From positions 72,910 through 136,909 of the forward strand of contig JBBAFH010000003.1 in assembly GCA_041655535.1 (NCBI GenBank): a stretch of DNA of 64,000 nucleotides, read 5' to 3'. Source of the DNA: Bacilli bacterium. GTDB lineage: Bacteria > Bacillota_I > Bacilli_A > RF39 > UBA660. Below the pieces are notes generated by a model, which was not told where the DNA came from, did not search any database, and saw nothing but the letters and a program-made list of their open reading frames with translations. Below, piece after piece: positions 28,918 to 58,830 of the stretch. The translations under genes and the position numbers were made by a program. Position 1 is the first letter of the stretch, and every line of letters starts with the position of its first letter.

Positions 28918-29709
28918 CTAATCATTTTTGACTAGTCTTTTCTCAATATAGTAGACAATATAGTACATAATGGCTGAAACAAGCGAAAGGATAATTACAC
29001 CAGTTATTACTAAGTCTAAATTAAATACTTGAGAACCATACATTATTAAATACCCAATTCCTTTTTTCGATACTAAAAATTCTCCCATTATAATTCCGAT
29101 CAAAGACATACTAACATTTATTTTCAAAGCGCTGATAATGTTATTAAAACTACTTGGTAGAACAAGTTTGAAAAACGTTTGCCCTTTATTCGCACCAAGA
29201 GACTTCATTAATTTTACTTTTACTGGATCGGTTTCATTGAAACCTTGCAACACATTAATAATTGTAACAATTACTGATATAAGTAAAGCCATTACAATAA
29301 TTGAACCTGTTTTGGCCCCAATCCATATAATGATAATTGGTCCGAGTGCTACTTTTGGTAAACTATTTAATATTATAAGATAAGGTTCTAAAATTTTAGA
29401 AATAAATTTATTCCACCATAATGCTGCCGCAATAATTATTCCAATAAGGGTTCCAAGAGTAAAACTAACCACTGTTTCATAAACTGTTGTAAAAATATGT
29501 TGATATAAATCATTTGTTTGATGTAGTGTTATAAGCGTTTCAATAACTTTAGAAGGACTTGAAGAAACAAAAGTGTTAATGATTTTAAAATCAGCAAGTA
29601 ATTGCCAAATTCCAAAAAAAAGTATGGATAAAAGTATTTGAATAAACAGAATAATAATTTTTTCTTGTTTGATTTTTTTTAAGTATTTAATATGCTCTTT
29701 ACTATACAT
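28918..29709 (-). CDS. ABC transporter permease, NitT/TauT (SsuC/TauC-like) family
   Basis: 6 TM segments and a binding-protein-dependent transport EAA-like region. The ATG at 29709 overlaps the stop of the upstream ATPase C-fragment in the form ATGTATAG. Confidence 0.8.
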   Translation of the reverse strand: MYSKEHIKYLKKIKQEKIIILFIQILLSILFFGIWQLLADFKIINTFVSSSPSKVIETLITLHQTNDLYQHIFTTVYETVVSFTLGTLIGIIIAAALWWNKFISKILEPYLIILNSLPKVALGPIIIIWIGAKTGSIIVMALLISVIVTIINVLQGFNETDPVKVKLMKSLGANKGQTFFKLVLPSSFNNIISALKINVSMSLIGIIMGEFLVSKKGIGYLIMYGSQVFNLDLVITGVIILSLVSAIMYYIVYYIEKRLVKND

Positions 29710-29881
29710 GAAAATCAATTTCTTTCCATATTAAATCGTAGTAATACGCAAATTCTTTGGCTTTTCTGTTCTCGATAGGTGATGATTTATCTGTTAATTC
29801 TATATTATAAATACTTTTAATTGTTCCAGGCCTCTTTGTTAAAACAATAATTCGGTCTGCCATGCTTATGGCTTCACTCAT
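29702..29881 (-). pseudogene. C-terminal fragment of the NitT/TauT ABC ATPase gene split by the insertion
   Basis: MSEAISMADRIIVLTKRPGTIKSIYNIELTD...EIDFHV continues the H-loop region (VTHDIS|EAI...) of the ATPase whose N-terminal part is at 41858..42445. The ATG is created at the junction. Confidence 0.7.
29867..29881. repeat. left junction repeat (attL-like) TATGGCTTCACTCAT
   Basis: 13/15 identical to the right-end repeat. Contains the shared core CTTCACT (AGTGAAG on the gene strand). Confidence 0.55.
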
Positions 29882-30027
29882 AGGTACAATTAGTATGATA
29901 ATAAATTAACTTGACACATAAGCTTAATTAGGTGATGTTATGATAAAGTTAACAAAAGAACAACAGGTTAAAATTATTGCTTTTCTATTAAGGACTTCAA
30001 TTTCTAGGATGATTCAAAAGGATAATT

Positions 30028-31503
30028 GTGATAAAGTTGATTAATAATTTCAAAGTGGGTATTTATGTTAGAGTATCGACTGAAGATCAAAAAGAATTTG
30101 GTTATTCTATTCCACAACAAATAGACCTATTATCAAAACTAGCTAACAAAAACAATTGGTATATATATAAAATATATAATGATGCTGGGATAAGTGGAAA
30201 AAATACAGACCGTCCAAAGCTTAAAGAACTATTAGATGATATTAAAAATCAAAAAATAAATAAGGTTTTAATTACTAAGCTTGACAGATTATCAAGAAAT
30301 GTTGTTGATACGGCTACATTGTTAAATGTTTTTAATAGTTTTAATTGTGAGTTAATAGATAGTACAGGAAGAAAAATAGAATCAGATAATCCTAGTGATT
30401 GGTTATTTACTATCATTCAAAGTGCTTTTGGACAATACGAAAGAAAGGCAATTATCAATCGTATTAAAGATGGTTTTGCGGGCAAAGCGAAGATGGGGAA
30501 AACACTATGTAGTTCAACGCCACCATATGGATATAATCGTGAAAAAGGGAGTAATGAATTAATTGAAGACGAAGAGGAATCAACAATTGTAAAACGAATT
30601 TATAATATGTACCTTGATGGAAATACATTTGCAGATATTGCAAAAATACTTAATGCTTCAAAAATATTAACTAAAAAATCAAAAACTGGGAATAAAGTTA
30701 TTAAGTGGACTTCAAAAACAGTAAAGCTTATCTTGTCTAACTCAACTTATATAGGTAAAATTAGATATCATTTAAACAGGGATGATTACCAAGAATATAA
30801 TGGAACTCATATTCCTTTAATTGATATTGCAACATATAAAAAAGTTCAAGAAAAACATAAAAAAACAAGTTTAATATTTCGGACTAATAAACCCAAAGAG
30901 GATGTTTATTTTTGTGGAACCGTTGTGTGTGGGTGTTGCAATACGCTTTTAACAACACAAAGAACTAAAAGAAACAACAAAACATATTATGGCTATAGAT
31001 GTCGTAAACGTGAGTTAGGAACATGTAAAGGAACAAGTATAAGTCATAAAAAAGTTGAAAAGGCCTTTTTTAAATATTTAGAATCTATAAAACAATTTGA
31101 TATGATTGATAGTTTTGATGTTTCTTTTAATAATAATGATAATTTAGAAATTAGTGATTTAACAAAAAATATTAGCAAGTGTAAATCCAAAAAAAAAGAA
31201 ATAATGCAACTATTTATGAACGATAGTATTTCTAATGAGCAAATGAAGTTTATGATAAAAGAAATTACATCAAAAGATAAAATAATGAGTGAAAGGTTAA
31301 AAAAAATAAAAAATATACAAAAAACAAACCAAAACAATTTTGGAGGTATTTCTATTAATATAAGGAAACATTTTGAATTGTTAACTAATTTTGAACGACA
31401 TGAATTTTTAACACAGTTTATTGAATATATTGTCATAAAAAATGATGAAAAGAATAAAATAAATGGTTGCCCAGTGACGTTGAAAATAAAGTTTTATGAT
31501 TGA
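30028..31503 (+). CDS. large serine recombinase (resolvase/invertase catalytic domain + recombinase domain + zinc ribbon + coiled coil)
   Basis: N-terminal VGIYVRVSTEDQ (Ser nucleophile), KLDRLSRN. C-terminal Cys cluster CGTVVCGCCNTLLTTQRTKRNNKTYYGYRCRKRELGTCKG. Lys/Glu-rich coiled-coil tail. The exact start is ambiguous (GTG 30028, TTG 30037 or GTG 30055). Confidence 0.8.
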   Translation: MIKLINNFKVGIYVRVSTEDQKEFGYSIPQQIDLLSKLANKNNWYIYKIYNDAGISGKNTDRPKLKELLDDIKNQKINKVLITKLDRLSRNVVDTATLLNVFNSFNCELIDSTGRKIESDNPSDWLFTIIQSAFGQYERKAIINRIKDGFAGKAKMGKTLCSSTPPYGYNREKGSNELIEDEEESTIVKRIYNMYLDGNTFADIAKILNASKILTKKSKTGNKVIKWTSKTVKLILSNSTYIGKIRYHLNRDDYQEYNGTHIPLIDIATYKKVQEKHKKTSLIFRTNKPKEDVYFCGTVVCGCCNTLLTTQRTKRNNKTYYGYRCRKRELGTCKGTSISHKKVEKAFFKYLESIKQFDMIDSFDVSFNNNDNLEISDLTKNISKCKSKKKEIMQLFMNDSISNEQMKFMIKEITSKDKIMSERLKKIKNIQKTNQNNFGGISINIRKHFELLTNFERHEFLTQFIEYIVIKNDEKNKINGCPVTLKIKFYD

Positions 31504-31610
31504 TAAAAGCCTTTATGAGTCAATGTTATTAAGTTTTAATTTGATGGATTATGTGATATACTATATAAGTAGTAAGATAAATAAACAAACATAGGTGGTG
31601 GTGATTAAAG

Positions 31611-34600
31611 ATGATAAGCGGTAATGAATTTAATAGGATAAGAAAACATTATAATAAATTAATTAAAATGATTAATAATCATTTTTTTGTAGGTATTGTT
31701 AATGAGTGGATAATTGATAATTATTATTTATTAGTTGAACAAAAAGATTCTATCAAAAAGTTTACTAAAGATAAAAAAGCATATAGTTATACTAGTAAAT
31801 ATTTAAATATGTATGATGTTTTTAAAACTATTTTGGAAAAGTATAATTATAAAATAGATGAAAACATTATTATAAAAGAAGTGATTGATTATCAGAAAAC
31901 GACTGGTTATAATTTAAAATATAAAGAACTATCTATTATACCTTTAGTTATCAAAGTTTTGTTGTTAAGAGAAGTATCGATAATTTGTGAAGAAGAATCA
32001 TCAAAATTAAATGATAAAAAAGAAGTAAAAAATATTATTAACAAATTAAAGAAAATGGTTTTAAATAACGAGGAAATAGATTTAGCAAAGTATATAAATT
32101 TAAATAAAATGTCTAGTTATGGTGTTGTTTACTTTAATGAGCAATTTAAAGAGTTGGGAGAATATTCTAATGTAGTTTTCAAACAATTTAATAGTTTGTT
32201 AGAAAACAACAATAAAGTAATGATTGATATTATAAACAAGGAACATTTAAAGAGTACCGAGTCTAACATAATTATTAATAATATATTTTTAAGTTTTAAA
32301 GAAACTAACATTTTTGTTATGGAAAATATTTACGAAAAAGTTAATGATGTCGAGAAGTTACTTCAAGAAGATAAATTATATTCTAAAATGACTCTTGAAA
32401 CAAAAACTTTAATTCGTCAACATTTACTTAAACGCGCAAGACAAGACAAAGTTACTGCCGATACTTTAGTAAAAGATATTTTAGATGATTATAATAATAT
32501 TAGTGATGGACTTTTAAAAAAGAAGGATTATGGTTTTCTGAAGGTTATATTTTATCTAGTAATTGTATTTGCAATAACCGCTATTTTAAGCTATTATTTA
32601 TCAGTTTTTTTAACCAGTTATAGGTTATTAGGTTTTTTAGCACTTCTGATTCCAATTAGCGAAATAGTAAATATTGTTGTTCAAAATATGTTTTTAAGAC
32701 TATTTAGAACAAAACCATTGGCAAAACTAGATTTTTCAAAAGGAATACCATCTAATCATAAAACGATGGTTGTTATTCCAACTATTGTTAAAACTGAAGA
32801 AAAAATTAAACAAGTTTTTACTAGCTTAGAAAAGTATTATTTAATCAATAAAACAAGTAATTTATATTTCACTTTATTAAGTGATGCTTTTGAAAATAAT
32901 GAAGAAAATCACCAAAATGATTCTACTATTATTTCTTCTGGTGTGGCTGAAGCCGAAAGATTAAACAAAATATATGGTAAAAATATTTTTCATTTTGTCT
33001 ATCGCCGTCGTATATATAATAAAGGTGAAGGGACATGGCTAGGTTTTGAACGGAAAAGAGGGGCATTGCTTCATTTTAATGACTTGCTATTAGGTAATAT
33101 GAATGAAGAAGAACAAAAAAAATATTTTAAAGTTCATACTTTCCATAATTTTCATCATAAGATTAAATATGTAATTACTTTAGACGTAGATACTGAATTG
33201 GTTTTAAATAGTGCTTTAAAACTAGCTGGAACCATGGCACATCCTTTAAATAGACCCATTTTAAACGAATCAAAGACCAAGGTTATTGCTGGATACGGTA
33301 TATTACAACCTAGAATTAGTTTAGAAGTTGAAGCTAGCAATAAATCATTGTTTTCACAAATATATGCAGGAATTGGGGGCTTTGATCCATACAGTAATCT
33401 TTACCCTAACTTTTATCAAGATGTTTTTAAAGAAGGAACTTTTTATGGAAAAGGAATATATGACTTAAAGGTTTATCAACAAGTCTTAAAAAAACGTTTC
33501 CCAAACAATTTGATATTAAGTCATGATTTAGTTGAAGGAAATTATCTTCGTGCCGGGAATGTTACTGATATTGATTTAATTGATGGTTTTCCATCTAAAT
33601 TTTTAGTAGATGCTTCTAGACGCTCAAGATGGGCGAGAGGAGATATGCAAGTAATTAGTTGGATTGGAAATAAAGTTAGAAATGAATCTGGAATCAAAGA
33701 AAAAAATCCAATTAGTTTATTAGGTAAGTGGAAAATCATTGATAACATCAGACGCGGATTGATTAATGTATTTTTATTAATAATCCTTTTTCTAGCACTT
33801 AATAGTAATATTGTGAATCCCAACTGGTGGTTATTGTTTGTTATTTTAATATATATTTTACCAATCATTATTCAAGTTATCGAAAATTTTGTGATTAGTC
33901 GTTCTAGTTTTAGTTCCTTGAAATATTATCGCATATTAGTATTTGGTTATAGAGCACTTATTCTAAGAGCGATAACTGAACTATCAATAATTCCTTACAA
34001 TGCTTACTTATATTTAAACTCTTTTGTTCGTTCAATATATCGAATGACTATTAGTAAGAAGCATTTACTTAATTGGGTTACAGCTGATGACGCTGCTAAA
34101 TTAGTTAAAACTAATTTAGGTAATACAATTAAACAATTTTGGATCAACACTTTTTTAGCAATCATTTTAATTGTTTGGGCTTTATATTCTAAAGAACATC
34201 AATTATTAAAACTTGTTCTATCATTTATTTTTATGCTAGGTCCTGTTATTACCTATTTAATTAGTAAAGATTTAGCACACGATAAAAATAAAATTGAAAA
34301 AGATGGTATTGAAACATTAAATAATTTAGCTAAGAGTACTTGGAGTTACTTTAGTGACAATTTAACTGAAGAAAACAATTATTTAATTCCTGATAATTAT
34401 CAAGAAAATAGAGATATAAAACCAGATATTAAAACGTCACCAACTAACATTGGACTTTCGTTAGTATCGGTTATTTCAGCATGCGAATTAAAATTAATAA
34501 ATACTGATGAAGCACTTCATTTGCTCGAAAAAATAATTACATCTATTAAAAAATTAGATAAGTGGCATGGTCATCTATATAATTGGTATGATATTAAAAC

Positions 34601-37600
34601 TTTAAAAGTTATGTATCCTCATTTTATTTCGAGTGTTGATAGCGGCAACTTTGTTGCTTCTTTAATGGTGGCCAAAGGATTTGTTGAAAAATATAATCGA
34701 CTAGAATTACTGAAAATGATTGAAAGATTAATAAATAAAACAGAATTTCAGTATTTATATACAGACACTGATGTATTTAGTGTTGGATATCATGTTGACC
34801 AAGGTCGATTAGAACCATTTAATTATAATAAATTTATGAGCGAAAGCCGCATTTTAAGTTATTTAGCAATCGCTAAAGGTGACGTTCCTAGTAAGCATTG
34901 GTTTGGTCTTGATAAAACGTTAATAGCTTATAAAAATAAAAAAGGTTTATCATCATGGTCTGGTACTTTCTTTGAATATTATATGCCACTTCTATTTATG
35001 CCAAGTTATGCTAATACGATAATTGATGAGGCTTATCATTTTGCATACTATGTTCAAAGTGATTATATGAAAAAGTATAACAAAAATTATCCGTGGGGAA
35101 TTTCAGAATCCGCTTATAATGATCTAGATGATGCTCAAAACTATAAATATAAAGCATTTGGTATTCCACAGTTAAGGCTTCGGGAGGAAGCAAGTGAAAG
35201 AGTTGTTATATCTCCATATAGTTCCCTTCTAGCCTTACCTCTATTTCCAAAAGAAGTTATTAAAAATATTGAAAAATTTAAACCACTTAATATGTTTGGT
35301 AAATATGGATTATATGAATCATATGATTGTTTAGATGAATCACCAGTTGTATCATATTACGCCCATCATCAAGCAATGATTTTAGGAAGTCTTACAAACT
35401 TTTTAACAGATGGTGTTATTCAATCATATTTTTACAAAGATATTCGTAATCAAGCTGTTGATATGTTAATAAAAGAAAAGGTTCAATTAAGACCACACAT
35501 TAATTATGAGACAATGAGGTATAAGAAATATACATATGAGAAAGAATCTTTTGTTAATGATATTAGAGTTTATAATCAAATATCAAAACTACCTGAGTTG
35601 TCGGTTTTATCAAATTCAAAGTATAGTGTTATTATTAATGATCGAGGGAATGGATATAGTAAATATTATCAAATTAGATTAAATAGATATCGTAAGGTTA
35701 CTGAAAGGGATTATGGACAATTTTTATATATTAAAGATTTACAAACTAAAAAGGTTTGGTCAAACACATATGCCCCAATTAATGTAAAACCGAAAAAATA
35801 TGAAATAGTATATGCTTTAGATAATATAAAATTTGTTAGAGCAGATAAAGATGTTATTACTACTACTGAAATAGTGGTGACAAAATCACACAATGCTGAA
35901 ATAAGAAGAATCACTTTTAAAAATAATGGAAACAAAGATAAAGAGTTGGAATTAACAACTTATACAGAACCTATTTTAGGTCTTAATTCTGATGATATTG
36001 GTCATCCAGTATTTAACAATATGTTTGTCTATAGTGAATACGACAAAAAAACCAATTCTATTATTATGAAAAGGAAATTAAGAAATTCTGATACAAATTA
36101 TTACATGATAAGCCGATTATTTATAGAAGATCCAATTGGTTCCTTTGAGTATGAAACAAATCGTGATAATTTTATCGGTAGAGGTCGTAATACTAATAAT
36201 CCAAAATCAATTCATGAAAAACTTCGTAACTATGTTGGAACTACACTTGATCCAATCATTAGTTTAAGAAATAAAATTTTAGTACCTAAAAATAGTGAAA
36301 AAACAGTTTATTTAATCACTGGTTTTGGAAGATCACGAGAACATGTTTTAAACATTGTTAGAACCTATTGTAATAAACAAGTTATCAATGAAAAAGGGTT
36401 TGAAACGGCTATTATTATGAGTAATGCAAGCAATAAAATGGTTAATATGAGTAGCGATGACCGTCGTTTATATAATACAATGCTTAATTATCTATTACAG
36501 ACAAATTATATTGTTGTAAGCGACGAAATATTTGATAATTTAACTAAAAACACGTTAAATCAAACAAATTTATGGGGCTTTGGAATTTCTGGTGACAGAC
36601 CAATAATATTATTAGACTTAAAAGATTTAAGTGATTTGAGTTTGGTTAAAGAATTATTGCATGCTTTTGAATATTACAAAAGCAAAGCAATTTTCATTGA
36701 TTTGGTTATAATTAATAGTGAAAACGAACAATACGCTAAAGTTATAGCAAAAGAAATAGAAAACGAAAAATATCATATGTATGCTATTAATAACTTCTTC
36801 AATACGCCTGGTTCAATTTTTGTTTTAGATAGAAACAAAATTAGTGAAGAGGATTATATTTTATTAAAAACGGTTGCTAGACTAAAAATTGATAGTAATC
36901 TTCATAATTCACTGCAATACTATATTAATGAACTTCAAAAATTAAACACAGTGAAAACTAAGCATAATGAAAATGAAGTTCCAAGTTTACCGATTAAGTA
37001 TGACAAAAACAAAATAAAATTCTTTAATGAATTTGGTGGTTTTATTAATAATGGTAAAGAATATTTAATAGTTGACCCAAATACTCCTTCAGCTTGGAGT
37101 AATGTCATTTCTAATAAAAACTTTGGAACAGTTATTACTAATAATAACTGTGGGTTCACTTATGCCGTAAACAGTAGAGAGTACAAATTAACGTCTTGGA
37201 CTAATGATGCTTTAGTTAATGATTATTCAGAAGGGTTTAAAATTAATGATATGAAAATCAATTTCAGTCATGTTAAATTTGGATTCGGTTATAGTGAGTA
37301 TATAGGAAACTTTAAACGAGTCGATCTTAATTTAATTCAATTTGTAGCAAAGGAAGATAACGTTAAATTTTATAAGATGAAACTAAAAAACAATTCTGCT
37401 CGTAAACAAAGAATTATTTTGAAGTTTTGGATAAACCCTAATCTTGGGTTTACTGAAGAAAAAACAGGACGTTATTTACTAAGTGAATTTAATGAAAAGA
37501 ATAATTATTTAAGTATCAGAAATGTTTATAGTCAAAAGTTTAATCATTTATATGCATATATGTCTAGTACTGAAAAAATAAACAACGCTATACTCAATAA

Positions 37601-39275
37601 TTTGTTAGTTAAAGAAATTGAAGTTGATTTCTATCTAGATGAAAAGGAAGAAAAAGAATTGGTCTTTACTTTAGGTAGTTCCACTAAAGATAATTTAGAT
37701 ACACTTGTCACGAAATATAATGATATTGCAAAAGTTAATGAAGAATTATCTAATATCAAAAATCATTGGGACGATATATTAACTACTGTTCAAATAAAAA
37801 CACCTGATGAAAGTTTTGATTATATATTAAATGGTTGGGCTTTATATCAAAGTATTGCTTCTAGATTACAAGCACGTGCAGGATTTTATCAAGTTGGTGG
37901 TGCATATGGATTTCGTGATCAATTACAAGATTCAATGAATGTATGCAGTATTGATCCTAGTATTACAAGGAATCAAATATTATTTAATGCTGCTCACCAA
38001 TTTAAAGAAGGAGATGTTCTTCATTGGTGGCACCCTAAATTAGATATTGGCTTGCGTTCATTATATAAGGATGATTATTTGTGGTTAATCTACGCAATTA
38101 GTGAGTATCTAAAAATTACTGAAGATTTTAGTATTTTAGATGAACAAGTACCATTTATTACAGGATTCGCACTTGAACCACACGAACATGAAAAGCTAAT
38201 TAATTACAAAGTTGGCGAAGAAACGTCTAGTATTTATGATCGTTGTATATTAATAATAAATAAAGCAATGAATGAACTAGGTCAAAATGGTTTACCCCTT
38301 ATGGGTGGTGGTGACTGGAACGATGGGATGAATAAGATAGGTATTGAAGGAAAAGGAACCAGTGTTTGGCTAGGATTTTTCTTGTACCAATTAATTAATG
38401 AATTCATGGCATTTGTTGATAAATATGATGCTAATATTGATTTAAGCATTTATAATGATTTTAACAAAGAACTAAAAGAATCTTTAAGAAATGTTGCGTG
38501 GGATGGTAAGTATTATTTAAGAGCTTTCTTTGATAATGGTCAACCAGTAGGATCAAATACTAATGAAGAATGCACAATAGATTTATTATCACAAAGTTTC
38601 GCCATATTATCTGGTGTAGCCGATTCTAAACAAATTGATACAATGATTGAGTCAGTAGAAACTAAGTTAGTTGATAATGATTTAAAAATTATTAAACTTT
38701 TGACACCAGCATTCTCTAAAAACAAAAATAATCCAGGATATATTATGGATTATCCTAAAGGAATTAGAGAAAATGGTGGTCAATATACTCATGCTGTCGC
38801 TTGGTACATTCAAGCCCTACTAAAAATAGGAAAGAATGATTTAGCATTCGATCACTATCAAATGATGAATCCAATTAATCGCACTAAAACTAAGGAAGAT
38901 GCATTGAAATATAAAGTTGAACCATATGTTTTTGTAGCGGATATCTATAGTAACGAAAATTTTGCTGGTCAAGGTGGATGGAGTTGGTATACCGGAACTA
39001 GTGGTTGGTTTTACAATGTCGCCCTTACAGATATTATTGGATTTAATTTAAGAGGTGACAAATTATATGTCACTCCTAATGTTCCGATTAAATGGAATGA
39101 CTTTGAAATAACTTATCGTTATCAAGACACGGTTTATAAAATAAAAGTTATGCTAAAAGAACCTAAAGACGAGATTATAATTGATAATAAAGTTACCTAT
39201 TATAATTATATAGAGTTAATAAATGATAAGAAAATACACACAGTTTTAGTAAAGAAAGGAGAGCAAAATGATTAA
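31611..39275 (+). CDS. giant multidomain glucan synthase, cyclic beta-1,2-glucan synthase (Cgs/NdvB/ChvB)-like: N-terminal region + GT-A glycosyltransferase + TM segments + C-terminal GH94-type phosphorylase domain
   Basis: 2554 aa. GT-A signatures ITLDVDTE (DxD) and RRSRWARGD (QxxRW-like), with multiple TM helices on either side. C-terminal region carries GGAYGFRDQLQDSMN, GGGDWNDGMN and WSWYTGTSGW, typical of GH94 (cellobiose/chitobiose phosphorylase-like) catalytic domains. RBS GGTGGTGGTGA. Confidence 0.7.
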   Translation: MISGNEFNRIRKHYNKLIKMINNHFFVGIVNEWIIDNYYLLVEQKDSIKKFTKDKKAYSYTSKYLNMYDVFKTILEKYNYKIDENIIIKEVIDYQKTTGYNLKYKELSIIPLVIKVLLLREVSIICEEESSKLNDKKEVKNIINKLKKMVLNNEEIDLAKYINLNKMSSYGVVYFNEQFKELGEYSNVVFKQFNSLLENNNKVMIDIINKEHLKSTESNIIINNIFLSFKETNIFVMENIYEKVNDVEKLLQEDKLYSKMTLETKTLIRQHLLKRARQDKVTADTLVKDILDDYNNISDGLLKKKDYGFLKVIFYLVIVFAITAILSYYLSVFLTSYRLLGFLALLIPISEIVNIVVQNMFLRLFRTKPLAKLDFSKGIPSNHKTMVVIPTIVKTEEKIKQVFTSLEKYYLINKTSNLYFTLLSDAFENNEENHQNDSTIISSGVAEAERLNKIYGKNIFHFVYRRRIYNKGEGTWLGFERKRGALLHFNDLLLGNMNEEEQKKYFKVHTFHNFHHKIKYVITLDVDTELVLNSALKLAGTMAHPLNRPILNESKTKVIAGYGILQPRISLEVEASNKSLFSQIYAGIGGFDPYSNLYPNFYQDVFKEGTFYGKGIYDLKVYQQVLKKRFPNNLILSHDLVEGNYLRAGNVTDIDLIDGFPSKFLVDASRRSRWARGDMQVISWIGNKVRNESGIKEKNPISLLGKWKIIDNIRRGLINVFLLIILFLALNSNIVNPNWWLLFVILIYILPIIIQVIENFVISRSSFSSLKYYRILVFGYRALILRAITELSIIPYNAYLYLNSFVRSIYRMTISKKHLLNWVTADDAAKLVKTNLGNTIKQFWINTFLAIILIVWALYSKEHQLLKLVLSFIFMLGPVITYLISKDLAHDKNKIEKDGIETLNNLAKSTWSYFSDNLTEENNYLIPDNYQENRDIKPDIKTSPTNIGLSLVSVISACELKLINTDEALHLLEKIITSIKKLDKWHGHLYNWYDIKTLKVMYPHFISSVDSGNFVASLMVAKGFVEKYNRLELLKMIERLINKTEFQYLYTDTDVFSVGYHVDQGRLEPFNYNKFMSESRILSYLAIAKGDVPSKHWFGLDKTLIAYKNKKGLSSWSGTFFEYYMPLLFMPSYANTIIDEAYHFAYYVQSDYMKKYNKNYPWGISESAYNDLDDAQNYKYKAFGIPQLRLREEASERVVISPYSSLLALPLFPKEVIKNIEKFKPLNMFGKYGLYESYDCLDESPVVSYYAHHQAMILGSLTNFLTDGVIQSYFYKDIRNQAVDMLIKEKVQLRPHINYETMRYKKYTYEKESFVNDIRVYNQISKLPELSVLSNSKYSVIINDRGNGYSKYYQIRLNRYRKVTERDYGQFLYIKDLQTKKVWSNTYAPINVKPKKYEIVYALDNIKFVRADKDVITTTEIVVTKSHNAEIRRITFKNNGNKDKELELTTYTEPILGLNSDDIGHPVFNNMFVYSEYDKKTNSIIMKRKLRNSDTNYYMISRLFIEDPIGSFEYETNRDNFIGRGRNTNNPKSIHEKLRNYVGTTLDPIISLRNKILVPKNSEKTVYLITGFGRSREHVLNIVRTYCNKQVINEKGFETAIIMSNASNKMVNMSSDDRRLYNTMLNYLLQTNYIVVSDEIFDNLTKNTLNQTNLWGFGISGDRPIILLDLKDLSDLSLVKELLHAFEYYKSKAIFIDLVIINSENEQYAKVIAKEIENEKYHMYAINNFFNTPGSIFVLDRNKISEEDYILLKTVARLKIDSNLHNSLQYYINELQKLNTVKTKHNENEVPSLPIKYDKNKIKFFNEFGGFINNGKEYLIVDPNTPSAWSNVISNKNFGTVITNNNCGFTYAVNSREYKLTSWTNDALVNDYSEGFKINDMKINFSHVKFGFGYSEYIGNFKRVDLNLIQFVAKEDNVKFYKMKLKNNSARKQRIILKFWINPNLGFTEEKTGRYLLSEFNEKNNYLSIRNVYSQKFNHLYAYMSSTEKINNAILNNLLVKEIEVDFYLDEKEEKELVFTLGSSTKDNLDTLVTKYNDIAKVNEELSNIKNHWDDILTTVQIKTPDESFDYILNGWALYQSIASRLQARAGFYQVGGAYGFRDQLQDSMNVCSIDPSITRNQILFNAAHQFKEGDVLHWWHPKLDIGLRSLYKDDYLWLIYAISEYLKITEDFSILDEQVPFITGFALEPHEHEKLINYKVGEETSSIYDRCILIINKAMNELGQNGLPLMGGGDWNDGMNKIGIEGKGTSVWLGFFLYQLINEFMAFVDKYDANIDLSIYNDFNKELKESLRNVAWDGKYYLRAFFDNGQPVGSNTNEECTIDLLSQSFAILSGVADSKQIDTMIESVETKLVDNDLKIIKLLTPAFSKNKNNPGYIMDYPKGIRENGGQYTHAVAWYIQALLKIGKNDLAFDHYQMMNPINRTKTKEDALKYKVEPYVFVADIYSNENFAGQGGWSWYTGTSGWFYNVALTDIIGFNLRGDKLYVTPNVPIKWNDFEITYRYQDTVYKIKVMLKEPKDEIIIDNKVTYYNYIELINDKKIHTVLVKKGEQND

Positions 39276-40470
39276 ATTTGATTTTAACACTTATATGAAA
39301 TCATTTGATAGAGTTGGAAATTATCAGTCTAAAATAAATAAAATAATTAATTTATTAGAAACAGGAACATCGATGAATGATTGGTATGATATAGACAAAT
39401 GTATTACGCCAGGAGTTTTAGAAGATATTTTAGAAACAAGTAAATATATTCGTAATAATTGTGATGTTTTTATTGTTATTGGAGTGGGTGGATCATCATT
39501 AGGTGCAAAAGCTGTTGTTGATGCATTCAAACCTTATTTCAAAAAAAGCAATCCCGAAATAATCTTTTTGGGATCATCACTATCATCAGTTTATTTAAAA
39601 GAATTGTTAAAATATATTGAAGGTAAAGAGGTAATTATTAATGTGATTTCTAAATCCGGGACGACTTTTGAAACAAATCTATATTTTGAATATATCTACA
39701 AGGAACTTAATAAAAGATATGTTGAAGACGAGCTTAATAAAAGAATAATTATAACAACTGATGCAAAAGAAGGAAGTCTTAGACAATTAGTTAATCAAAA
39801 AAATTACAAATCTTTTGTTTTACCAAGTAATATTGGTGGGAGATATTCAGTTATGACAGTTGTTGGTCTTTTACCAATAGCGGTTTCAGGTATAGATATA
39901 AATGAAATGATTCTTGGTGCCAAAGCATTAGATAAACAGAAATCTTTTGATTATGCTGTCAGCAGGGATCTTTTATACAAATACGGAAAAAAAGTGGAAT
40001 CACTTACTATTTATGAACCAAAACTATTATCATTAGTTGAAAGTATCAAACAAGTACTTGCTGAAACCCAAGGAAAAGAAGGTAAAGCTATTTTGCCAAT
40101 TGCTTCGATTAATACTGGAGATCTGCACTCTTTGGGGCAGTTTTATCAAGAAGGCAGTCAAATATTATTTGAAACAGTTATTAACGTTGAATATAATAAC
40201 GATATCGTTATATCTAAATATAATAAAAAATTAGATGATATAAACAAAATAGTTGCTAGTCAAGTAGCGACTTCTCATATGAAAAATGATGTTTATAGTA
40301 ATTTTATATCACTTGATGCATTAACTCCTTTTAATATAGGTCAACTAATTTATTTCTTTGAAATAGCCGCAGCAGCAGGTGCATACCTACTTGAAGTGGA
40401 ACCATTTGGTCAACCTGGTGTAAGTGAATATAAAAAATTAGTTGCAAGGGAACTTGATAATAATGAGTAA
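39268..40470 (+). CDS. pgi: glucose-6-phosphate isomerase (short, Bacillus/archaeal-type PGI)
   Basis: 400 aa, ...VIGVGGSSLGAKAV..., ...ISKSGTTFET..., GGRYSVMTVVGLLP. Start overlaps the giant gene's stop by 8 nt. Confidence 0.8.
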   Translation: MIKFDFNTYMKSFDRVGNYQSKINKIINLLETGTSMNDWYDIDKCITPGVLEDILETSKYIRNNCDVFIVIGVGGSSLGAKAVVDAFKPYFKKSNPEIIFLGSSLSSVYLKELLKYIEGKEVIINVISKSGTTFETNLYFEYIYKELNKRYVEDELNKRIIITTDAKEGSLRQLVNQKNYKSFVLPSNIGGRYSVMTVVGLLPIAVSGIDINEMILGAKALDKQKSFDYAVSRDLLYKYGKKVESLTIYEPKLLSLVESIKQVLAETQGKEGKAILPIASINTGDLHSLGQFYQEGSQILFETVINVEYNNDIVISKYNKKLDDINKIVASQVATSHMKNDVYSNFISLDALTPFNIGQLIYFFEIAAAAGAYLLEVEPFGQPGVSEYKKLVARELDNNE

Positions 40471-41830
40471 AATAAATCCATTAATTTTTAGAGCTTATGA
40501 TATTAGAGGTATCTATCCGATTGATATTAACGAAGAAATGGCTTTTATAATAGGTTGCAGTTTTGGAACTTATATTACTAGTATTGGTAAAACAGAAGCT
40601 TTAGTTGGATACGATAACCGTTTATCTTCTCCTTCTTTAAGGGATTCGTTAATTAAAGGAATTACTAGTACCGGAATCAACGTTATCGATCTAGGGCTTA
40701 TTACAACACCGATGTTTTATTATGCTAGAACATATTTAAATGTTTGGTCTGGAATAATGATTACAGCAAGCCATAATCCAAGTGATCATAATGGATTTAA
40801 ATTATCTTTTACCGAAATTGGAAATGCTCTTGGAGAAGAAATTACCGATTTTTATAATTTTACGATCAAGGGAGAATTTATAGATGGAAATGGTACTATA
40901 AATCATTACAATATTAAAAACGACTATATAGAACTTATTAAAAATTCCCTTGATTTGGGAGGTAAAAAAATCAAAGTGGTTGTTGATTGTGGGAACGGAA
41001 CTACATCAGTTGTCATAAAAGATATTCTTGATTCATTACCAATTGTTTATGAGTTGATGTATGCAGAAAGCGATCCAACTTTTCCAAATCATCATCCTGA
41101 TCCATCAGTGCCAGAAAACTTAATTGATCTTCAAAAACGAGTAGTTGAGTTAAATTGCGATTTAGGACTTGCTCTAGATGCTGATGGAGACCGTATTGGA
41201 CTTGTCGATAATTTAGGCAATGTTATTGATAGTGATTTATATATGATTATAATGTATCGTTATTTAAGTAAAAATATGAAAAATAAGACGGCGCTTTATG
41301 ACGTAAAATGTTCAAAATCATTGATTAATGAAATAGATAAACTTGGTTTAAAACATATTATGAATCGTACTGGTAATTCATATGTATACAGAAGACTTCA
41401 TCAAGAAAATATTGAATTTGGTGGAGAATATTCTGGACATATCTTCTTTAAAGATAAATTTCCAGGATTTGATGATGGTATTTATGCTGGTCTTAGAATG
41501 GTTGAAGTATTGTCAACAACTGGTAAAATGATAAGTGAATTATCAGAAGGGATTAATAAATATTATTCGACTGATGAAATAAAAGTAACAGTTGCTGATG
41601 AAAAAAAATTCAAGGTAATAGAAAAGATAAAAGAAATATTGAAAAATAAAAAAATACCATTTAAAGATATTGATGGTGTAAGAGTTGAAACGAATGACTT
41701 TTGGGTGTTAGTAAGAGCTTCAAATACAACGCCTAACTTAACAGTTAGATTTGAGGCTAATAGTGAAAAGTTACTTGAAAAAATAAAAGATGAATATTTT
41801 GAACTAATTAATAAAGTAATAAAAGGATAA
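40463..41830 (+). CDS. phosphoglucomutase/phosphomannomutase (alpha-D-phosphohexomutase family)
   Basis: MSKINPLIFRAYDIRG..., active-site TASHNP, metal loop DADGDR, GEYSGH. The ATG at 40463 overlaps the pgi stop in the form ATGAGTAA. Confidence 0.8.
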   Translation: MSKINPLIFRAYDIRGIYPIDINEEMAFIIGCSFGTYITSIGKTEALVGYDNRLSSPSLRDSLIKGITSTGINVIDLGLITTPMFYYARTYLNVWSGIMITASHNPSDHNGFKLSFTEIGNALGEEITDFYNFTIKGEFIDGNGTINHYNIKNDYIELIKNSLDLGGKKIKVVVDCGNGTTSVVIKDILDSLPIVYELMYAESDPTFPNHHPDPSVPENLIDLQKRVVELNCDLGLALDADGDRIGLVDNLGNVIDSDLYMIIMYRYLSKNMKNKTALYDVKCSKSLINEIDKLGLKHIMNRTGNSYVYRRLHQENIEFGGEYSGHIFFKDKFPGFDDGIYAGLRMVEVLSTTGKMISELSEGINKYYSTDEIKVTVADEKKFKVIEKIKEILKNKKIPFKDIDGVRVETNDFWVLVRASNTTPNLTVRFEANSEKLLEKIKDEYFELINKVIKG

Positions 41831-41857
41831 TATAATTATCTTTTTTTTTATACTTAT

Positions 41858-42445
41858 TTAGTATATGCCTTCACTTATATCATGGGTGACCATTATGACA
41901 CTTTTTTTTTCTTTTTTGATAATTTTATAAACATCATCTGATACTGCTAACCTCGTTTGATAATCAAGTGCTGAAAAAGGTTCATCTAACAAAAGAATAT
42001 CTGGTTTCGTGGCCAGCGTTCTAATTAGAGCCGCTCTTTGTCGCATCCCCCCGGATAAACTACTAGGATAATTATCCACAAAATCACCGAGGCCATAAGT
42101 ATTTAGTAACTTTATTACGTAATCAGTATTTTCTTTTGTTAATTCATTTTTGATTTCTAAACCAATTAAACAGTTATTTAAAATTGTTCGCCAATTAAAC
42201 AAATTATCTTGTTGTAGCATGTACCCAATTGTAGAATTTTCATTAAAATTAACTGTTCCTTCTGATATTTTTTCTAAACCACATAAAATTGATAGAATAG
42301 TCGACTTTCCGCATCCACTTGGGCCAACAATGGCCACAAACTCCCCTTCATACAAATTAAAAGAAAAGTTATCAACAGCTAATATTTCACCTTGTTTAGT
42401 ATGATAAATTTTCTTTAAGTTTTCAATATTTAATATTTTATTCAT
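41858..42445 (-). pseudogene. N-terminal fragment (195 aa) of the NitT/TauT-type ABC transporter ATP-binding protein, truncated by the insertion
   Basis: Walker A GPSGCGKST, signature LSGGMRQR, Walker B LLLDEPFSALD, H-loop VTHDIS, then an abrupt ...EGIY stop at the element boundary. The remainder is found at 29702..29881. Confidence 0.75.
41864..41878. repeat. right junction repeat (attR-like) TATGCCTTCACTTAT
   Basis: Direct repeat of the 29867-29881 sequence. Lies immediately adjacent to the truncated ATPase N-fragment stop. Confidence 0.55.
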
Positions 42446-43436
42446 TATTATTTTCTACGGAAAAACTTACATCAACTAATTTGTTATATGGAGCTTTTTT
42501 ATTTAATTCTCCTGCAGATTCCATTATTGTTTGAACATGTTCAAAATCTTTTTTTTCAATTTTTGTGGTTTTATACCATGAATCAATACTCTTATATCTG
42601 TCTACCACTTTAGTAACATCATTAATTGATGTGTCTGGAAAATAATCAATTATGTTTTTAGCAATATCTTCTGATTTATTGTTATGAACATAATTTAACC
42701 CTTTTTGAATTGCTCTTGTAAAGCCTTCAATTAATTCTTTGTTGTCATCTATATAACTTTTTTTCGCACTATATGTTGTATACGGAACAACACCACCGAG
42801 TTCACCAACCGATGCAACAACATGACCATATCCTTGTTTTTCTATTTGAAGTGCTAAAGGTTCAAATAGAGTAACATAATCCCCATTACCACCAATAAAT
42901 GATCCTGCCATAGCAGCAAAAGCAATACTTGTATCGATGTTAACATCTTTTTTAGGATTAATGCCATTAGTCTTAAGTGCCCATTCGAATGTCATTTCTG
43001 GCATTCCACCTTTTCGACCACCTATAACATTCATTCCTCTCATGTCACTAAGTTTAAAATTATCAATTTTTTTTCTAGAAACTATGAAACTACCATCTCT
43101 TTTAGTTAAACCCGAAAAATTAATTAGATAATCTTCTTCACCTTCATTATAAATATAAATTGATGCTTCACTTCCACAAAACCCAATATTAACATCTCCA
43201 GATAAAACAGCAGCAGCTACTTTATCGGCACCAGGTACTAACATTAATTCGACATCTAATCCCTCATCTTCAAAATAACCTAAAGAATGTGCAATATATT
43301 GTGGGGCGTAAAAAATACTGTGAGTAACTTCTGCAACTTTTACTTTCGTTAAATCTTTATTTTTGTCTTTGAAAGCAAATAAGGTCCCTAATGCTATTAG
43401 TAAAACAATAAAAATCGATATAATAATTTTTTTCAA
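42438..43436 (-). CDS. ABC transporter substrate-binding protein, NMT1/THI5-like (NitT/TauT family)
   Basis: 332 aa, N-terminal signal/anchor. 8-nt overlap with the ATPase start, so it is the first gene of the SBP-ATPase-permease operon. Confidence 0.7.
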   Translation of the reverse strand: MKKIIISIFIVLLIALGTLFAFKDKNKDLTKVKVAEVTHSIFYAPQYIAHSLGYFEDEGLDVELMLVPGADKVAAAVLSGDVNIGFCGSEASIYIYNEGEEDYLINFSGLTKRDGSFIVSRKKIDNFKLSDMRGMNVIGGRKGGMPEMTFEWALKTNGINPKKDVNIDTSIAFAAMAGSFIGGNGDYVTLFEPLALQIEKQGYGHVVASVGELGGVVPYTTYSAKKSYIDDNKELIEGFTRAIQKGLNYVHNNKSEDIAKNIIDYFPDTSINDVTKVVDRYKSIDSWYKTTKIEKKDFEHVQTIMESAGELNKKAPYNKLVDVSFSVENNNE

Positions 43437-43589
43437 AACAAATTCCTCCTTTTATTTCATTGTTATTATATTCATTATGTTTTTAGGAGTGACATTATAA
43501 AGCGGATATAAAATATGATTATAATGATTACTTTACTTTTTTTGAATTAAATGTTATTATAACGTCATAAATAATTGGGGGGTGTGCCT

Positions 43590-51166: not shown

Positions 51167-53506
51167 GTGAAAATGAATTTACCAGTAGTACTACTTAAAG
51201 GTATTGTCTTATTACCGAATAATGAAATTCGGTTAGAATTTGATAATACGGTAAGTAAAAGTGTTATAGATGTATCAGAATTATTTCATGACAATAATGT
51301 CCTAGTTGTAAGTCAAGAAAATTTATTGGAAGAATTTCCTAAAATAAGTGATTTACCACGAATCGGAGTTATTGCTAAAATAATTCATAAAATAGAGCTA
51401 CCAAATGGCAATGTTAGAGTTGTTATAAAAGGTAGTCGCCGTGGAAAAGTTCTTGAATATTTAAATTTAGAAAAGGGTTCAGATATTTTAGAAGCCATAG
51501 TTGTGGAACTTTTAGATACTGTAATTGATAAAAGTGAAGAATCAATTTTAACTAATAAACTTTATCGTGAAGTTGAAGAATATATCAAAGGTATTCCATA
51601 TATAAGTAATAATATTTTGGGTATTATCGAAAATGTGAATAGTTTATCTGAAATGACTGATGTATTGGCATCTTTCCTACCAACAAAGTTAGACAGAATT
51701 CAACAATATTTATATAGTAACGATGTTAAAAATCGTGCAAAAATGATTTTAACGGATATTGATGATGGCAAAAAAATATATGATATTGAGAAATCAATTG
51801 ATCAAAAAGTCAAACATGAAATAGATAATAATCAAAAAGAATATTTGTTAAGAGAAAAAATTAAGGCTATTAAAGAAGAACTTGGAGATATTTCATCTAA
51901 AGATGAAGAAATAGATAAGTTAAAAGAAAAAATTGAAACTTTAATAGCTCCAATACAAATAAAAGAAAGATTATCTAGTGAGATAAAAAGATACGAAAGC
52001 CTTTCACAAACTTCACCCGAGGCGAATATTGTAAGAAATTATATCGATTGGTTACTTAGTTTACCTTGGAGTGAAACGACTAAAGATAATGAAGACTTAA
52101 AAGATGTTCGTAAAAAACTGGATGCTTCACATTATGGTTTGGATAAGGTTAAAACACGTATTATTGAATATTTGGCGATTAAGCAAATGACTAATAGTTT
52201 AAAAAGCCCAATTATTTGTTTGGTTGGACCACCAGGTGTTGGTAAAACTAGTTTAGCATTTAGTATTGCTTCAGCTATCAACCGTAATTTTGTCAAAATG
52301 TCGGTTGGTGGGGTTCATGATGAAGCTGAAATAATTGGACATCGTCGAGCTTATATAGGTTCGAGTCCTGGTAGAATTATTCAGTCTCTTAAAAAAGCTA
52401 AAAGTATTAATCCTGTTTTCTTAATTGATGAAATAGATAAAATGACTAAAGACTTTCGTGGGGATCCTGCTAGTAGTTTGTTAGAGGTTTTAGATCCGGA
52501 ACAAAATCAGTTCTTTAGCGACAATTATATTGAAGAAGAATACGATTTATCAAATGTCATGTTTATTGCAACTGCAAATTACATTGAAGATATTCCTGAG
52601 GCTTTAAAAGATCGTTTAGAAATTGTTAATTTATCAGGATATACAGAATACGAGAAGTTAGATATTGCCAAACGACATTTAATTGGTAAAATATGTAAAA
52701 ATCATGGTATTGATTCTTCTAAAATATATTTTAGTGATGAAATATTGCTATATATAATTAGAGGATATACTAGAGAAGCTGGTGTTCGTGAATTAGAGCG
52801 TCAGTTGTCAAATATTATTAGGAAAATAGTTGCTGATATTGTTATTGCTAAAGTAGATTATGAAAAACATCGCATTACCATAAAACTAGCAAATAAACTT
52901 TTAGGTAAAGTAAAATACAATTTTTCTGAAATTAACAAATTATCAAAAGTTGGTGTAGTTAACGGATTAGCATATACAAGTTTTGGTGGTGACACATTAC
53001 CAATTGAAGTTAATTACTTTAAAGGAAGTGGTAATCTATTCCTTACAGGTTCACTTGGAGAAGTTATGAAGGAAAGTGCTCACATCGCACTTAGCTATAT
53101 CAAATCAAATTATAAGCAATTTGGAATTGATTATGAAAAATTAACCAAAAATGATATTCATATTCATGTTCCAGAAGGTGCAATTCCTAAAGATGGTCCA
53201 AGTGCGGGTATAACTTTAACTACCGCTTTAATCAGTGCTTTTACTAGTAAAAAAATTCCTGCCAATCTTGCCATGACCGGCGAAATCACTTTAAGAGGTA
53301 ATGTTTTACCAATTGGTGGTTTAAAGGAAAAGAGTATTGGTGCAAGTCGCAACGGAATTAAAAGAATTATTATTCCTTATGGTAACCTAAACGACTTGGA
53401 TGAAATACCTAAAGAAATTAAAAACAATATAGATTATATAGCAGTTAAAAACTACAAAGAAGTAATGCATATTATTGATGAGGAAAAAGTATTAAGTAAA
53501 GTATAA
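51167..53506 (+). CDS. lon: ATP-dependent Lon protease
   Basis: 779 aa. LON N-domain, Walker A GPPGVGKTS, and a proteolytic domain with a Ser-Lys dyad region PKDGPSAGIT. Confidence 0.9.
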   Translation: MKMNLPVVLLKGIVLLPNNEIRLEFDNTVSKSVIDVSELFHDNNVLVVSQENLLEEFPKISDLPRIGVIAKIIHKIELPNGNVRVVIKGSRRGKVLEYLNLEKGSDILEAIVVELLDTVIDKSEESILTNKLYREVEEYIKGIPYISNNILGIIENVNSLSEMTDVLASFLPTKLDRIQQYLYSNDVKNRAKMILTDIDDGKKIYDIEKSIDQKVKHEIDNNQKEYLLREKIKAIKEELGDISSKDEEIDKLKEKIETLIAPIQIKERLSSEIKRYESLSQTSPEANIVRNYIDWLLSLPWSETTKDNEDLKDVRKKLDASHYGLDKVKTRIIEYLAIKQMTNSLKSPIICLVGPPGVGKTSLAFSIASAINRNFVKMSVGGVHDEAEIIGHRRAYIGSSPGRIIQSLKKAKSINPVFLIDEIDKMTKDFRGDPASSLLEVLDPEQNQFFSDNYIEEEYDLSNVMFIATANYIEDIPEALKDRLEIVNLSGYTEYEKLDIAKRHLIGKICKNHGIDSSKIYFSDEILLYIIRGYTREAGVRELERQLSNIIRKIVADIVIAKVDYEKHRITIKLANKLLGKVKYNFSEINKLSKVGVVNGLAYTSFGGDTLPIEVNYFKGSGNLFLTGSLGEVMKESAHIALSYIKSNYKQFGIDYEKLTKNDIHIHVPEGAIPKDGPSAGITLTTALISAFTSKKIPANLAMTGEITLRGNVLPIGGLKEKSIGASRNGIKRIIIPYGNLNDLDEIPKEIKNNIDYIAVKNYKEVMHIIDEEKVLSKV

Positions 53507-53523: not shown

Positions 53524-53569
53524 ATATTTAAGAAATGTTTTCATATAATTAATTGAAACAGAGAGGGTG

Positions 53570-54313
53570 ATGTTTTTGAACAAAATAATTCCATTTAAAA
53601 AAGAGATTATTTTTAAAACCAATTTATCTGAAATAACAAGCATTTCACTTGAACATACATTACAAGTTGATAAAGATAATATGGTAACTGGAGAATTTAT
53701 TATTAGTGGTGATTATAAAATGGTTGATACTAGTGTAAACGTTGAGTCATTTTCTTTTAATGTACCATTTGAAGTTAGTATCGATGAGAGATATATAATT
53801 GATAATGTCGTTGTTGATATATATGATTTCTATTACGAAATAATTAATAATAATATATTATCAATTAATATTGAAGTCTTGATTGATCAATTGGAAGAAA
53901 AACCACTAATAGAAGAATCCAAAGAAGAATCTATACCAGAAGAACCCAAAATAGTGGAACCTAAAATTGAACAAATTTACGATTTAGAAGAAAAAGCTGA
54001 GGAAGTTAAAAATTCATATATTGAAGAATTAAGAGAAGCTGAAAAAGGAACAAATGATAGGGAAGAGGAAATTGAAATGGTTGGCAATAGAAATGAAGAA
54101 ATGACCAATTCATTATTTGATAATTTTGACAGTAGCAGTGAAACTTATACGACTTATAAAATTTATATTGTTAGAGAAGGGGATACTTTGGAGTTACTAA
54201 TTCAAAATTATGGTATTAGTAAGGAAGAATTAGGACTCTACAATAATATTAATGAAATAAGTGTCGGTGATAAGTTAATTATTCCATCAGTATCAAATGA
54301 AAAAAATCAATAG
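53570..54313 (+). CDS. SpoVID-like protein (N-terminal SPOCS/DUF3794-like region, acidic linker, C-terminal LysM domain)
   Basis: C-terminal YKIYIVREGDTLELLIQNYGISKEELGLYNNINEISVGDKLIIP is a LysM domain. It is followed by a YsxE/CotS-like gene, as in spoVID-ysxE. Confidence 0.5.
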   Translation: MFLNKIIPFKKEIIFKTNLSEITSISLEHTLQVDKDNMVTGEFIISGDYKMVDTSVNVESFSFNVPFEVSIDERYIIDNVVVDIYDFYYEIINNNILSINIEVLIDQLEEKPLIEESKEESIPEEPKIVEPKIEQIYDLEEKAEEVKNSYIEELREAEKGTNDREEEIEMVGNRNEEMTNSLFDNFDSSSETYTTYKIYIVREGDTLELLIQNYGISKEELGLYNNINEISVGDKLIIPSVSNEKNQ

Positions 54314-58829: not shown

Positions 58830-58830
58830 A

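Follow-up and report, generated by a model that had tools for sequence, protein, structure and literature searches.

A large-serine-recombinase island with attL- and attR-like junctions splits an ABC-transporter ATPase gene in an uncultured Bacilli bacterium

The 64,000-nt stretch of contig JBBAFH010000003.1 studied here (assembly GCA_041655535.1, hereafter the window) carries an operon for an ATP-binding cassette (ABC) transporter whose ATPase gene is interrupted by an island that encodes a large serine recombinase (LSR). The split operon runs from an NMT1-type binding protein through the ATPase to the permease (Table 1). The N-terminal piece of the ATPase gene is a 195-codon open reading frame (ORF) with an ABC_tran domain, and an identical protein is found in other assemblies too. 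Joining the two pieces through one copy of the short sequence that they share gives a 747-nt in-frame ORF (...VTHDISEAISMADRIIVL...), whose 248-amino-acid (aa) product is 98% identical to an intact 248-aa protein, P0001, and can be aligned over its full length with the NitT/TauT-type ATPases CmpD and NrtD. According to the CmpD alignment, the break lies in the nucleotide-binding core, 3 residues past the H-loop histidine, at the codons THDIS-E-A. A search of NCBIfam for a more specific name returned generic sub-threshold matches only, the best of them to SaoA. The first-pass annotation had stated that the coupled start of the permease is preserved; the overlap between permease ATG and ATPase stop, ATGTATAG, is indeed intact and is the same in uninterrupted relatives. 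As a further observation on the operon, its promoter region (43437-43520, minus strand) is kept in six lineages as CAC-N15-GAATATAATAAC; its TATAAT is perfect and its -35 element weak.

The island has the same guanine-plus-cytosine (GC) content as its flanks. Its recombinase matches three Pfam families (PF00239, 2.9e-35; PF07508, 1.3e-19; PF13408, 1.9e-8), carries the N-terminal motif YVRVSTEDQ and matches an integrase in PHROG at 4e-109; the solved structures nearest to it are those of the TP901-1 integrase and SPbeta SprA. The remaining genes are a small ORF next to the recombinase and three cargo genes, for a cyclic beta-1,2-glucan synthase-like protein, a phosphoglucose isomerase (PGI) and a phosphoglucomutase/phosphomannomutase (PGM), the last opening at TTG 40442 in the ORF as called. 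Among the five ORFs called in the island none is a phage structural or lysis gene, a conjugation gene or a transposase gene, and the view that the island is neither phage nor conjugative is strongly supported.

Table 1. Features of the split operon and the island (positions in the window).
Feature	Position	Strand	Remarks
ABC permease (BPD_transp_1)	28918-29709	minus	start overlaps the ATPase stop
C-terminal ATPase fragment	29702-29881	minus	59 codons including the element-supplied ATG
attL whole, approximate extent	29850-29905	minus	host half B' ~29850-29873, element half P ~29876-29905
attL common core AGTGAAG	29872-29878	minus	predicted crossover dinucleotide GA at 29874-29875
Element-derived ATG	29879-29881	minus	in frame with the orphaned C-terminal ATPase fragment
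Inserted island	29879-41868		11,997 bp counting one core copy
Small ORF, 34 aa	29940-30044	+	overlaps the recombinase start; consensus KLTKEQQxxIxxFxxKTSIPRM
LSR, 491 aa	30028-31503	+	Resolvase, Recombinase and Zn_ribbon_recom domains
Cyclic beta-1,2-glucan synthase-like, 2554 aa	31611-39275	+	GH94 catalytic, supersandwich and glucoamylase-like domains
PGI	39268-40470	+	cargo
PGM	40463-41830	+	cargo; ATG 40463 called in relatives
N-terminal ATPase fragment	41858-42445	minus	192 host codons, then element-derived tail G-I-Y and stop
attR common core AGTGAAG	41869-41875	minus	predicted crossover dinucleotide GA at 41871-41872
NMT1/THI5-type substrate-binding protein	42438-43436	minus	first gene of the split operon

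Read on the minus strand, the sequence at the left junction (29861-29881) is cctATGAGTGAAGCCATAAGC and that at the right junction (41861-41881) is GATATAAGTGAAGGCATATAC. Both contain AGTGAAG, as the first-pass annotation had noticed. Its description of this shared core as 7 bp long holds at both junctions, but the similarity actually reaches further, to 14 of 16 positions (TATnAGTGAAGnCATA, 29867-29882 against 41864-41879). The 7-mer by itself is unremarkable, with 13 copies in the window where 6.6 are expected; what goes beyond chance is its placement at both break points of one gene. The right-junction 21-mer occurs a single time in the window and in 0 of 100 shuffles. There is strong support for reading the two AGTGAAG copies as the core common to attL and attR, a trace of the conservative, site-specific integration of the 11,997-bp island: the reconstructed and intact genes are both 747 nt long and colinear, and the empty site holds one core copy. 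Exchanging the halves of the junctions gives a predicted attB of the form ...GATATAAGT-GA-AGCCATAAGC... and a predicted attP of the form ...CCTATGAGT-GA-AGGCATATAC..., both strongly supported, with CCTATGAGTGAAGGCATATAC as the reconstructed attP junction sequence. The reading of the junctions as hybrid att sites is thus borne out by a recombinase gene that begins 147 bp from attL, by empty sites and by the dyad symmetry of attP, each described with its specifics here or below. For the explanation as a whole, an island bounded by attL and attR inside the ATPase gene, our confidence is high; its later excision is a separate matter on which we are less sure.

Related elements occupy the same codons in other lineages, which we call A (L084, L090), B (L086/L087, L091/L092), C (L088/L089, L095/L096) and D (L099-L101), with W for the window. 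In lineages A to D the recombinase lies between the permease plus C-fragment on one side and the N-fragment on the other, and the chromosomal flanks differ. The recombinases of A, B and C are 79, 64 and 59% identical to that of the window and are accompanied by the same three cargo genes. Lineage D has a 3.1-kb mini-element (L099 8738-11896) with a recombinase of 513 aa (39% identical), a cargo consisting of a peptidase S51 gene and a 90-aa ORF, and a 45-aa small ORF. The core shared by attL and attR is AGTGAAG in W and A, GAAGC in B, CTGAAG in C and ATATAGCGGAA in D, so that its length is 5, 6, 7 or 11 bp and its common part is GAAG (W, A, B, C) or GA (all five). We infer that this recombinase family is always in, and dedicated to, the ATPase gene. 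A more distant case comes from an Anaerocolumna metagenome genome (L073 4590-7460), where a 2.9-kb element sits at the same THDISEA codons with the core GAAGCAAT. Its recombinase has 555 aa, is 24% identical to that of the window and is co-directional with the ATPase gene, opposite to the window arrangement; the element also encodes a proline-rich 74-aa ORF and a 58-aa ORF.

Some side observations belong to these comparisons. No NMT1-type binding-protein gene adjoins the split gene in lineage D. In C. difficile CD160 (L053 ~4580) the homologous ATPase gene is cut right after GEA, and in a Clostridia metagenome genome (L029, ~4600) it is cut right after AEAIS. Both cuts lie within a few bases of the same point and are followed by unrelated genes on the other strand. 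There is no recombinase in the 4 kb covered at either cut, and a literature search on C. difficile elements returned nothing on the CD160 truncation.

Uninterrupted forms of the site can be found in relatives. The contigs that encode P0001 (L081 and L082) have the same gene order without the 12 kb and read CATGACATAAGTGAGGCTATAAGCATGG across the site, in a gene that is 91% identical overall. A second empty site, adjoining lineage B and again with the same gene order, is present in L102 and L103, and a scan of metagenomes added seven further intact genes (L104-L110). The glucan-synthase-like cargo is missing from the empty sites. Agreement between empty sites and the 21-mer attB proposed earlier, GATATAAGTGAAGCCATAAGC, had been set beforehand as the check on that proposal, and the proposal passed it: the 21-mer is exact and uninterrupted in the intact homologue of L110, and the closest relative matches it at 18 of 21 positions, with three differences that are all synonymous.

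One of the empty-site features deserves mention on its own. At the crossover codon (29872-29874/41869-41871) the four empty sites of close relatives, E1-E4 (L081, L093, L097 and L102), all have the glutamate codon GAG, which makes up about 13% of the glutamate codons in these genes and is therefore rare, and the occupied lineages have GAA in five of five. GAG may be a synonymous change of attB that resists integration. As a rule, protection by GAG is weakened by the distant intact genes, which are mixed: GAA in L105, L106, L107 and L110, GAG in L104, L108 and L109.

In serine integrases attP is typically an imperfect dyad of about 40-50 bp around a non-palindromic 2-bp crossover, which attB has as well. 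The reconstructed attP sites of W, A, B and C fit this description, with an imperfect dyad symmetry centred inside the core, and the element arm of attL is conserved in the same four lineages. The symmetry is at its maximum between the G and the A of GAAG, with complementarity at 14-17 of 26 positions; other centres reach 4-13. Since the dyad centre falls at G|A and GA is common to the cores of the five lineages, the 2-bp crossover is most likely GA at both junctions.

By itself a large serine recombinase joins attP to attB, and the reaction between attL and attR requires a directionality factor. The 34-aa ORF that overlaps the recombinase start is a candidate for such a recombination directionality factor, or for a regulator. 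It is kept in five lineages with an AGGTGA Shine-Dalgarno sequence upstream. It has no Pfam match; two of the three orthologues tested have a weak match to phrog_30936, a family of function unknown, and the window copy has none. Upstream of this ORF we also noticed an 11-nt motif, CATA[AG]GnTTAA, at 29922-29932 (plus strand), 12-18 nt before the start codon. The motif is at the same place in L084, L086, L088 and L099, that is in all five lineages with the window, and it resembles the inner left arm of attP (CATAGGTACAATTAG against CATAAGCTTAATTAG). The motif may serve autoregulation as a further binding site for the recombinase, or it may be a CATA-type -10 element.

The cargo has a history of its own. 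Two recombinase-free lineages (L093 1149-14010/L094 and L097/L098 1158-13910) hold homologous genes for the glucan synthase-like protein (Cgs), PGI and PGM at 65-73% aa identity, directly downstream of the permease of the intact operon and about 1 kb from attB. The order there is FeoB, Cgs, PGI, PGM, then permease, ATPase and binding protein on the opposite strand. The cargo thus exists also as a fixed chromosomal cluster in two lineages. No att remnants were seen in the recombinase-free clusters, and no single-step derivation connects the two arrangements.

What has become of the interrupted gene can be approached through its evolution. Host genes of W and A have diverged by 0.39-0.76 at synonymous sites, and their element genes by 0.74-0.84. 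The ratio of non-synonymous to synonymous divergence (dN/dS) is 0.13-0.16 for the LSR (0.14 for W against A), 0.035 for the N-fragment in W against A, and 0 for the C-fragment in the same pair, with 0 non-synonymous and 18 synonymous differences. Counted as synonymous to non-synonymous, the changes across the operon that are private to one branch number 72:20 for W, 102:17 for A and 84:10 for the intact E1, where a neutral gene would be expected to give about 1:3; the ATPase by itself has 27:2, 28:4 and 24:2, respectively. Two insertion-bearing strains of lineage B differ with a synonymous proportion (pS) of 0.066 across the element, and their N-fragments are 2 residues apart where about 30 would be expected under neutrality, if the insertion is older than the strain split. 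A collection of 15 billion proteins has no match to the exact intact allele of W, A, B or D; the split fragments are on record there, the N-fragment of lineage D on 178 contigs. The insertion looks fixed in the species carrying it. Purifying selection on the split gene, together with the split-only alleles of W, A, B and D, suggests that the element is inherited with its host and that the gene is kept, with the caveat of at least one horizontal transfer. Either all of the insertions are very recent or the gene is still used, and we favour the latter.

Because the recombinase family appears dedicated to the gene, the insertion looks fixed and the split operon is under purifying selection, we consider that the insertion may not be a dead end and that the gene may be rebuilt by precise recombinase-mediated excision, a proposal on which we are evenly divided. 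Precise removal of the island by the conserved LSR, which would rebuild the ATPase gene, would be the simplest route to its use, and the conserved 34-aa ORF may assist as a directionality factor.

If there is excision, it could be part of sporulation. The window encodes a SpoVID-like LysM protein (7e-12) followed by a YsxE-like protein (1e-30) at 53567-55196 (plus strand), between Lon (51167-53506) and ValS (58822-61392). This is the order in B. subtilis and suggests that the host, an uncultured 'Bacilli bacterium' of about 28% GC, forms endospores. In the relative L097, GerA, GerAC and a spore permease adjoin the operon; the Bacillaceae homologues have no ssuD neighbour, and one of them is near GerA and SleB-like genes. 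The genes ytlA, ytlC and ytlD encode the binding protein, ATPase and permease of a B. subtilis transporter. They are listed in the sigma-K regulon as core sporulation genes, which spore formers conserve and non-spore formers lack (Miller et al. 2012, PMC3416734). Given the putative sporulation genes of the host and the listing of this transporter of like type in the sigma-K regulon, programmed excision would most plausibly take place in the sporulating mother cell, as it does for skin, SPbeta or gin, and would rebuild the ytlC-like ATPase gene there from an element that is otherwise permanently resident. We put this version forward tentatively, as a possibility that we would not yet call probable.

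Several points weigh against our explanation. The excised form was not seen, a pattern for the attP junction giving 0 matches in metagenome and viral contigs, and the exact look-up of intact alleles found no strain-level empty site. The cargo tree is incongruent with the host tree: the recombinase-borne clusters all group together in the former, and W and A are nearer to the recombinase-free lineages in the latter. The element must therefore have crossed between host clades at least once, so that some of the insertions may be of recent date. A strictly vertical history, in which element and host diverged together, was rejected as the whole story, the recombinase-borne cargo being monophyletic against the host tree. 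The support for a GA crossover comes from symmetry and comparison, not from experiment. With regard to sporulation, the SpoVID and YsxE matches score below the NCBIfam curated cut-offs, and no sigma-K or sigma-E promoter was found upstream of the operon, the conserved TATAAT found there instead being sigma-A-like rather than the CATA-type -10 of sigma-E/K.

The strongest competitor is a dead-end insertion: the recombinase integrated the island and inactivated the transporter, the two halves are still intact as the insertions are recent, and the ATG at the junction is fortuitous. The movement of the element between hosts that follows from the tree conflict, and the lack of an excised circle or a same-strain empty site in our searches, are in its favour. 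So is the very low diversity within lineages, where strains are 99.2-100% identical, so that within-lineage dN/dS has no power and the insertions are not directly datable. That said, five or more lineages would each need a recent insertion of their own. At dS ~0.75, the elements of W and A are as far apart at synonymous sites as their hosts, and the ATPase fragments of W and A are as constrained on their private branches as the intact E1 gene. Neither the 2 changes in the lineage-B N-fragment, against about 30 expected since the insertion-bearing strains split, nor the conservation of the recombinase and the attP arms themselves sits well with this reading. We consider a dead end rather unlikely.

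Another possibility is that the ATPase works as a split protein, whose parts are the N-fragment, of 192 aa and a tail of 3 aa, and a C-fragment that starts at the ATG supplied by the element, with coupling to the permease kept. The first-pass annotation had proposed that a 59-aa C-terminal peptide could be made in this way. The ATG is real and in frame, and W, A, B and C, whose elements are of the glucan-synthase type, all have it immediately 5' of the core; its translation found no support. The ATG occupies positions -7 to -5 in the left arm of attP, within the inner palindrome TATG-N8-CATA, and is best explained as part of that palindrome, which gives it a non-coding reason for being there. 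In the right arm the mirror positions are CAT, TAT, AAT and TAT, so that the position facing the G varies (C, T, A, T) and the G is invariant on the left only, which is compatible with selection for a start codon. A stop of the N-fragment 3-4 codons past the junction in W, A and C, the strong purifying selection on the C-fragment and the intact overlap with the permease start also speak for a split protein. However, no Shine-Dalgarno sequence precedes the ATG, unlike the neighbouring genes, which have AGGAGG or AGGTGA. Promoter and terminator scans of both junctions gave background-level matches only (5 promoter-like matches against 3.3 +/- 2.0 expected). Lineage D has ATA instead of ATG and a hairpin just upstream of attL, the junction of the Anaerocolumna element has no start codon, and the break falls inside the nucleotide-binding core so close to the H-loop histidine. 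With no Shine-Dalgarno sequence, and with the ATG absent from the distant mini-element, translation of the C-fragment from this ATG is possible but unsupported, and we regard a functional split protein as improbable.

The first-pass annotation itself had named a transposon-style target duplication as a finding that would speak against att sites. On this reading the 7-bp repeat would be the work of a DDE transposase and no att core. Both models predict that the empty site holds one copy of the core. The island has no transposase, however, and the serine recombinase is its only mobility gene; the similarity of the junctions extends beyond 7 bp; and related elements have repeats of 5, 6, 7 or 11 bp at the same site, with the same codons hit in every lineage. 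A variable core length, a constant target and the absence of a transposase together exclude a duplication of fixed length, and we rejected this explanation as very improbable. A chimeric contig, joining unrelated pieces at a short repeat, is conceivable in metagenome assemblies such as these, yet a contig from an independent sample (L083) matches with 100% identity along 20.6 kb that span the right junction, and five or more diverged lineages, sampled in different projects, show this architecture again, which makes an artefact next to impossible.

The island is a serine-recombinase gene-intervening island, a known class, and it is unusual in its target, cargo and recurrence. The closest parallels are the intervening elements that split mother-cell genes (PMC5595907, PMC4191935, PMC10747680): skin with SpoIVCA in sigK, SPbeta with SprA/SprB in spsM and gin with GirC/GirX in gerE (PMC5595907, PMC4191935, PMC5499854), and the yin element in yabG (PMC10747680). 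As in these, an LSR element splits a coding sequence at a short common core, in a host with putative sporulation genes, and the split gene is kept intact. Like gin the island has no phage genes, its small ORF lies next to the recombinase as do GirX and SprB, and ytlC, the B. subtilis counterpart by type, is listed in the sigma-K regulon like other known targets. It differs in that the target is an ABC-transporter ATPase, which was not found as such a target in the literature searched, that the cargo is a metabolic cluster (glucan-synthase-like, PGI and PGM), that the operon promoter looks sigma-A-like, and that excision, its timing and the role of the small ORF are proposals. Regulated gene integrity (Mageeney et al. 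2020, PMC7192596) and the Listeria phage A118 in comK offer a second comparison. There, too, the integrase has its one site within a conserved gene, which loses its function on integration and would regain it on precise excision; however, the main text of PMC7192596 contains no ABC or ATP-binding target, and restoration in our case rests on evolutionary evidence.

The recombinase itself has relatives in several other systems. Its best named NCBIfam match is XisF (1.5e-45), the excisase of the fdxN element in Anabaena heterocysts. XisF is a developmental excisase of the large serine recombinase type, in another host and at another target; with 156 bits against a family cut-off of 375 the LSR of the window is not a member. 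The TP901-1 integrase, SPbeta SprA, the A118 integrase and the clostridial TnpX and TndX have the same domain architecture and use a short core with a non-palindromic central dinucleotide, which in TnpX and TndX is also GA. In contrast to these, the island has no phage or transposon backbone, and the identity of its recombinase to the solved proteins is low. SCCmec, whose CcrB and CcrC rank second and third among the named matches, is likewise a cargo island without transfer genes of its own that LSRs move into one particular gene of the chromosome. For SCC the insertion point is the 3' end of rlmH, which is not destroyed, whereas the gene in the window is cut through its catalytic core.

Apart from the island, the window encodes at 56710-57813 (plus strand) a 367-aa protein with a strong match to the ALK/LTK glycine-rich domain (PF12810, 4.8e-48), a domain that takes its name from animal receptor kinases.

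The junction itself is ordinary, a textbook case of serine-integrase att anatomy with a defined attB and attP and a predicted GA crossover. The wider pattern is more interesting, in that one recombinase family and an unrelated recombinase have repeatedly come to the same codons of a transporter gene that is under selection while split, and that a large glucan-synthesis cluster travels on a minimal integrase cassette without transfer genes. If excision does restore the ATPase gene, an ABC transporter would join the short list of genes controlled by reversible DNA insertion, and such elements would extend to uncultured gut and fermenter Bacilli. Programmed excision, most plausibly in the mother cell, would amount to a developmental gene rearrangement of a new kind, which targets a transporter and has a cyclic-glucan-synthase-like cluster as cargo.

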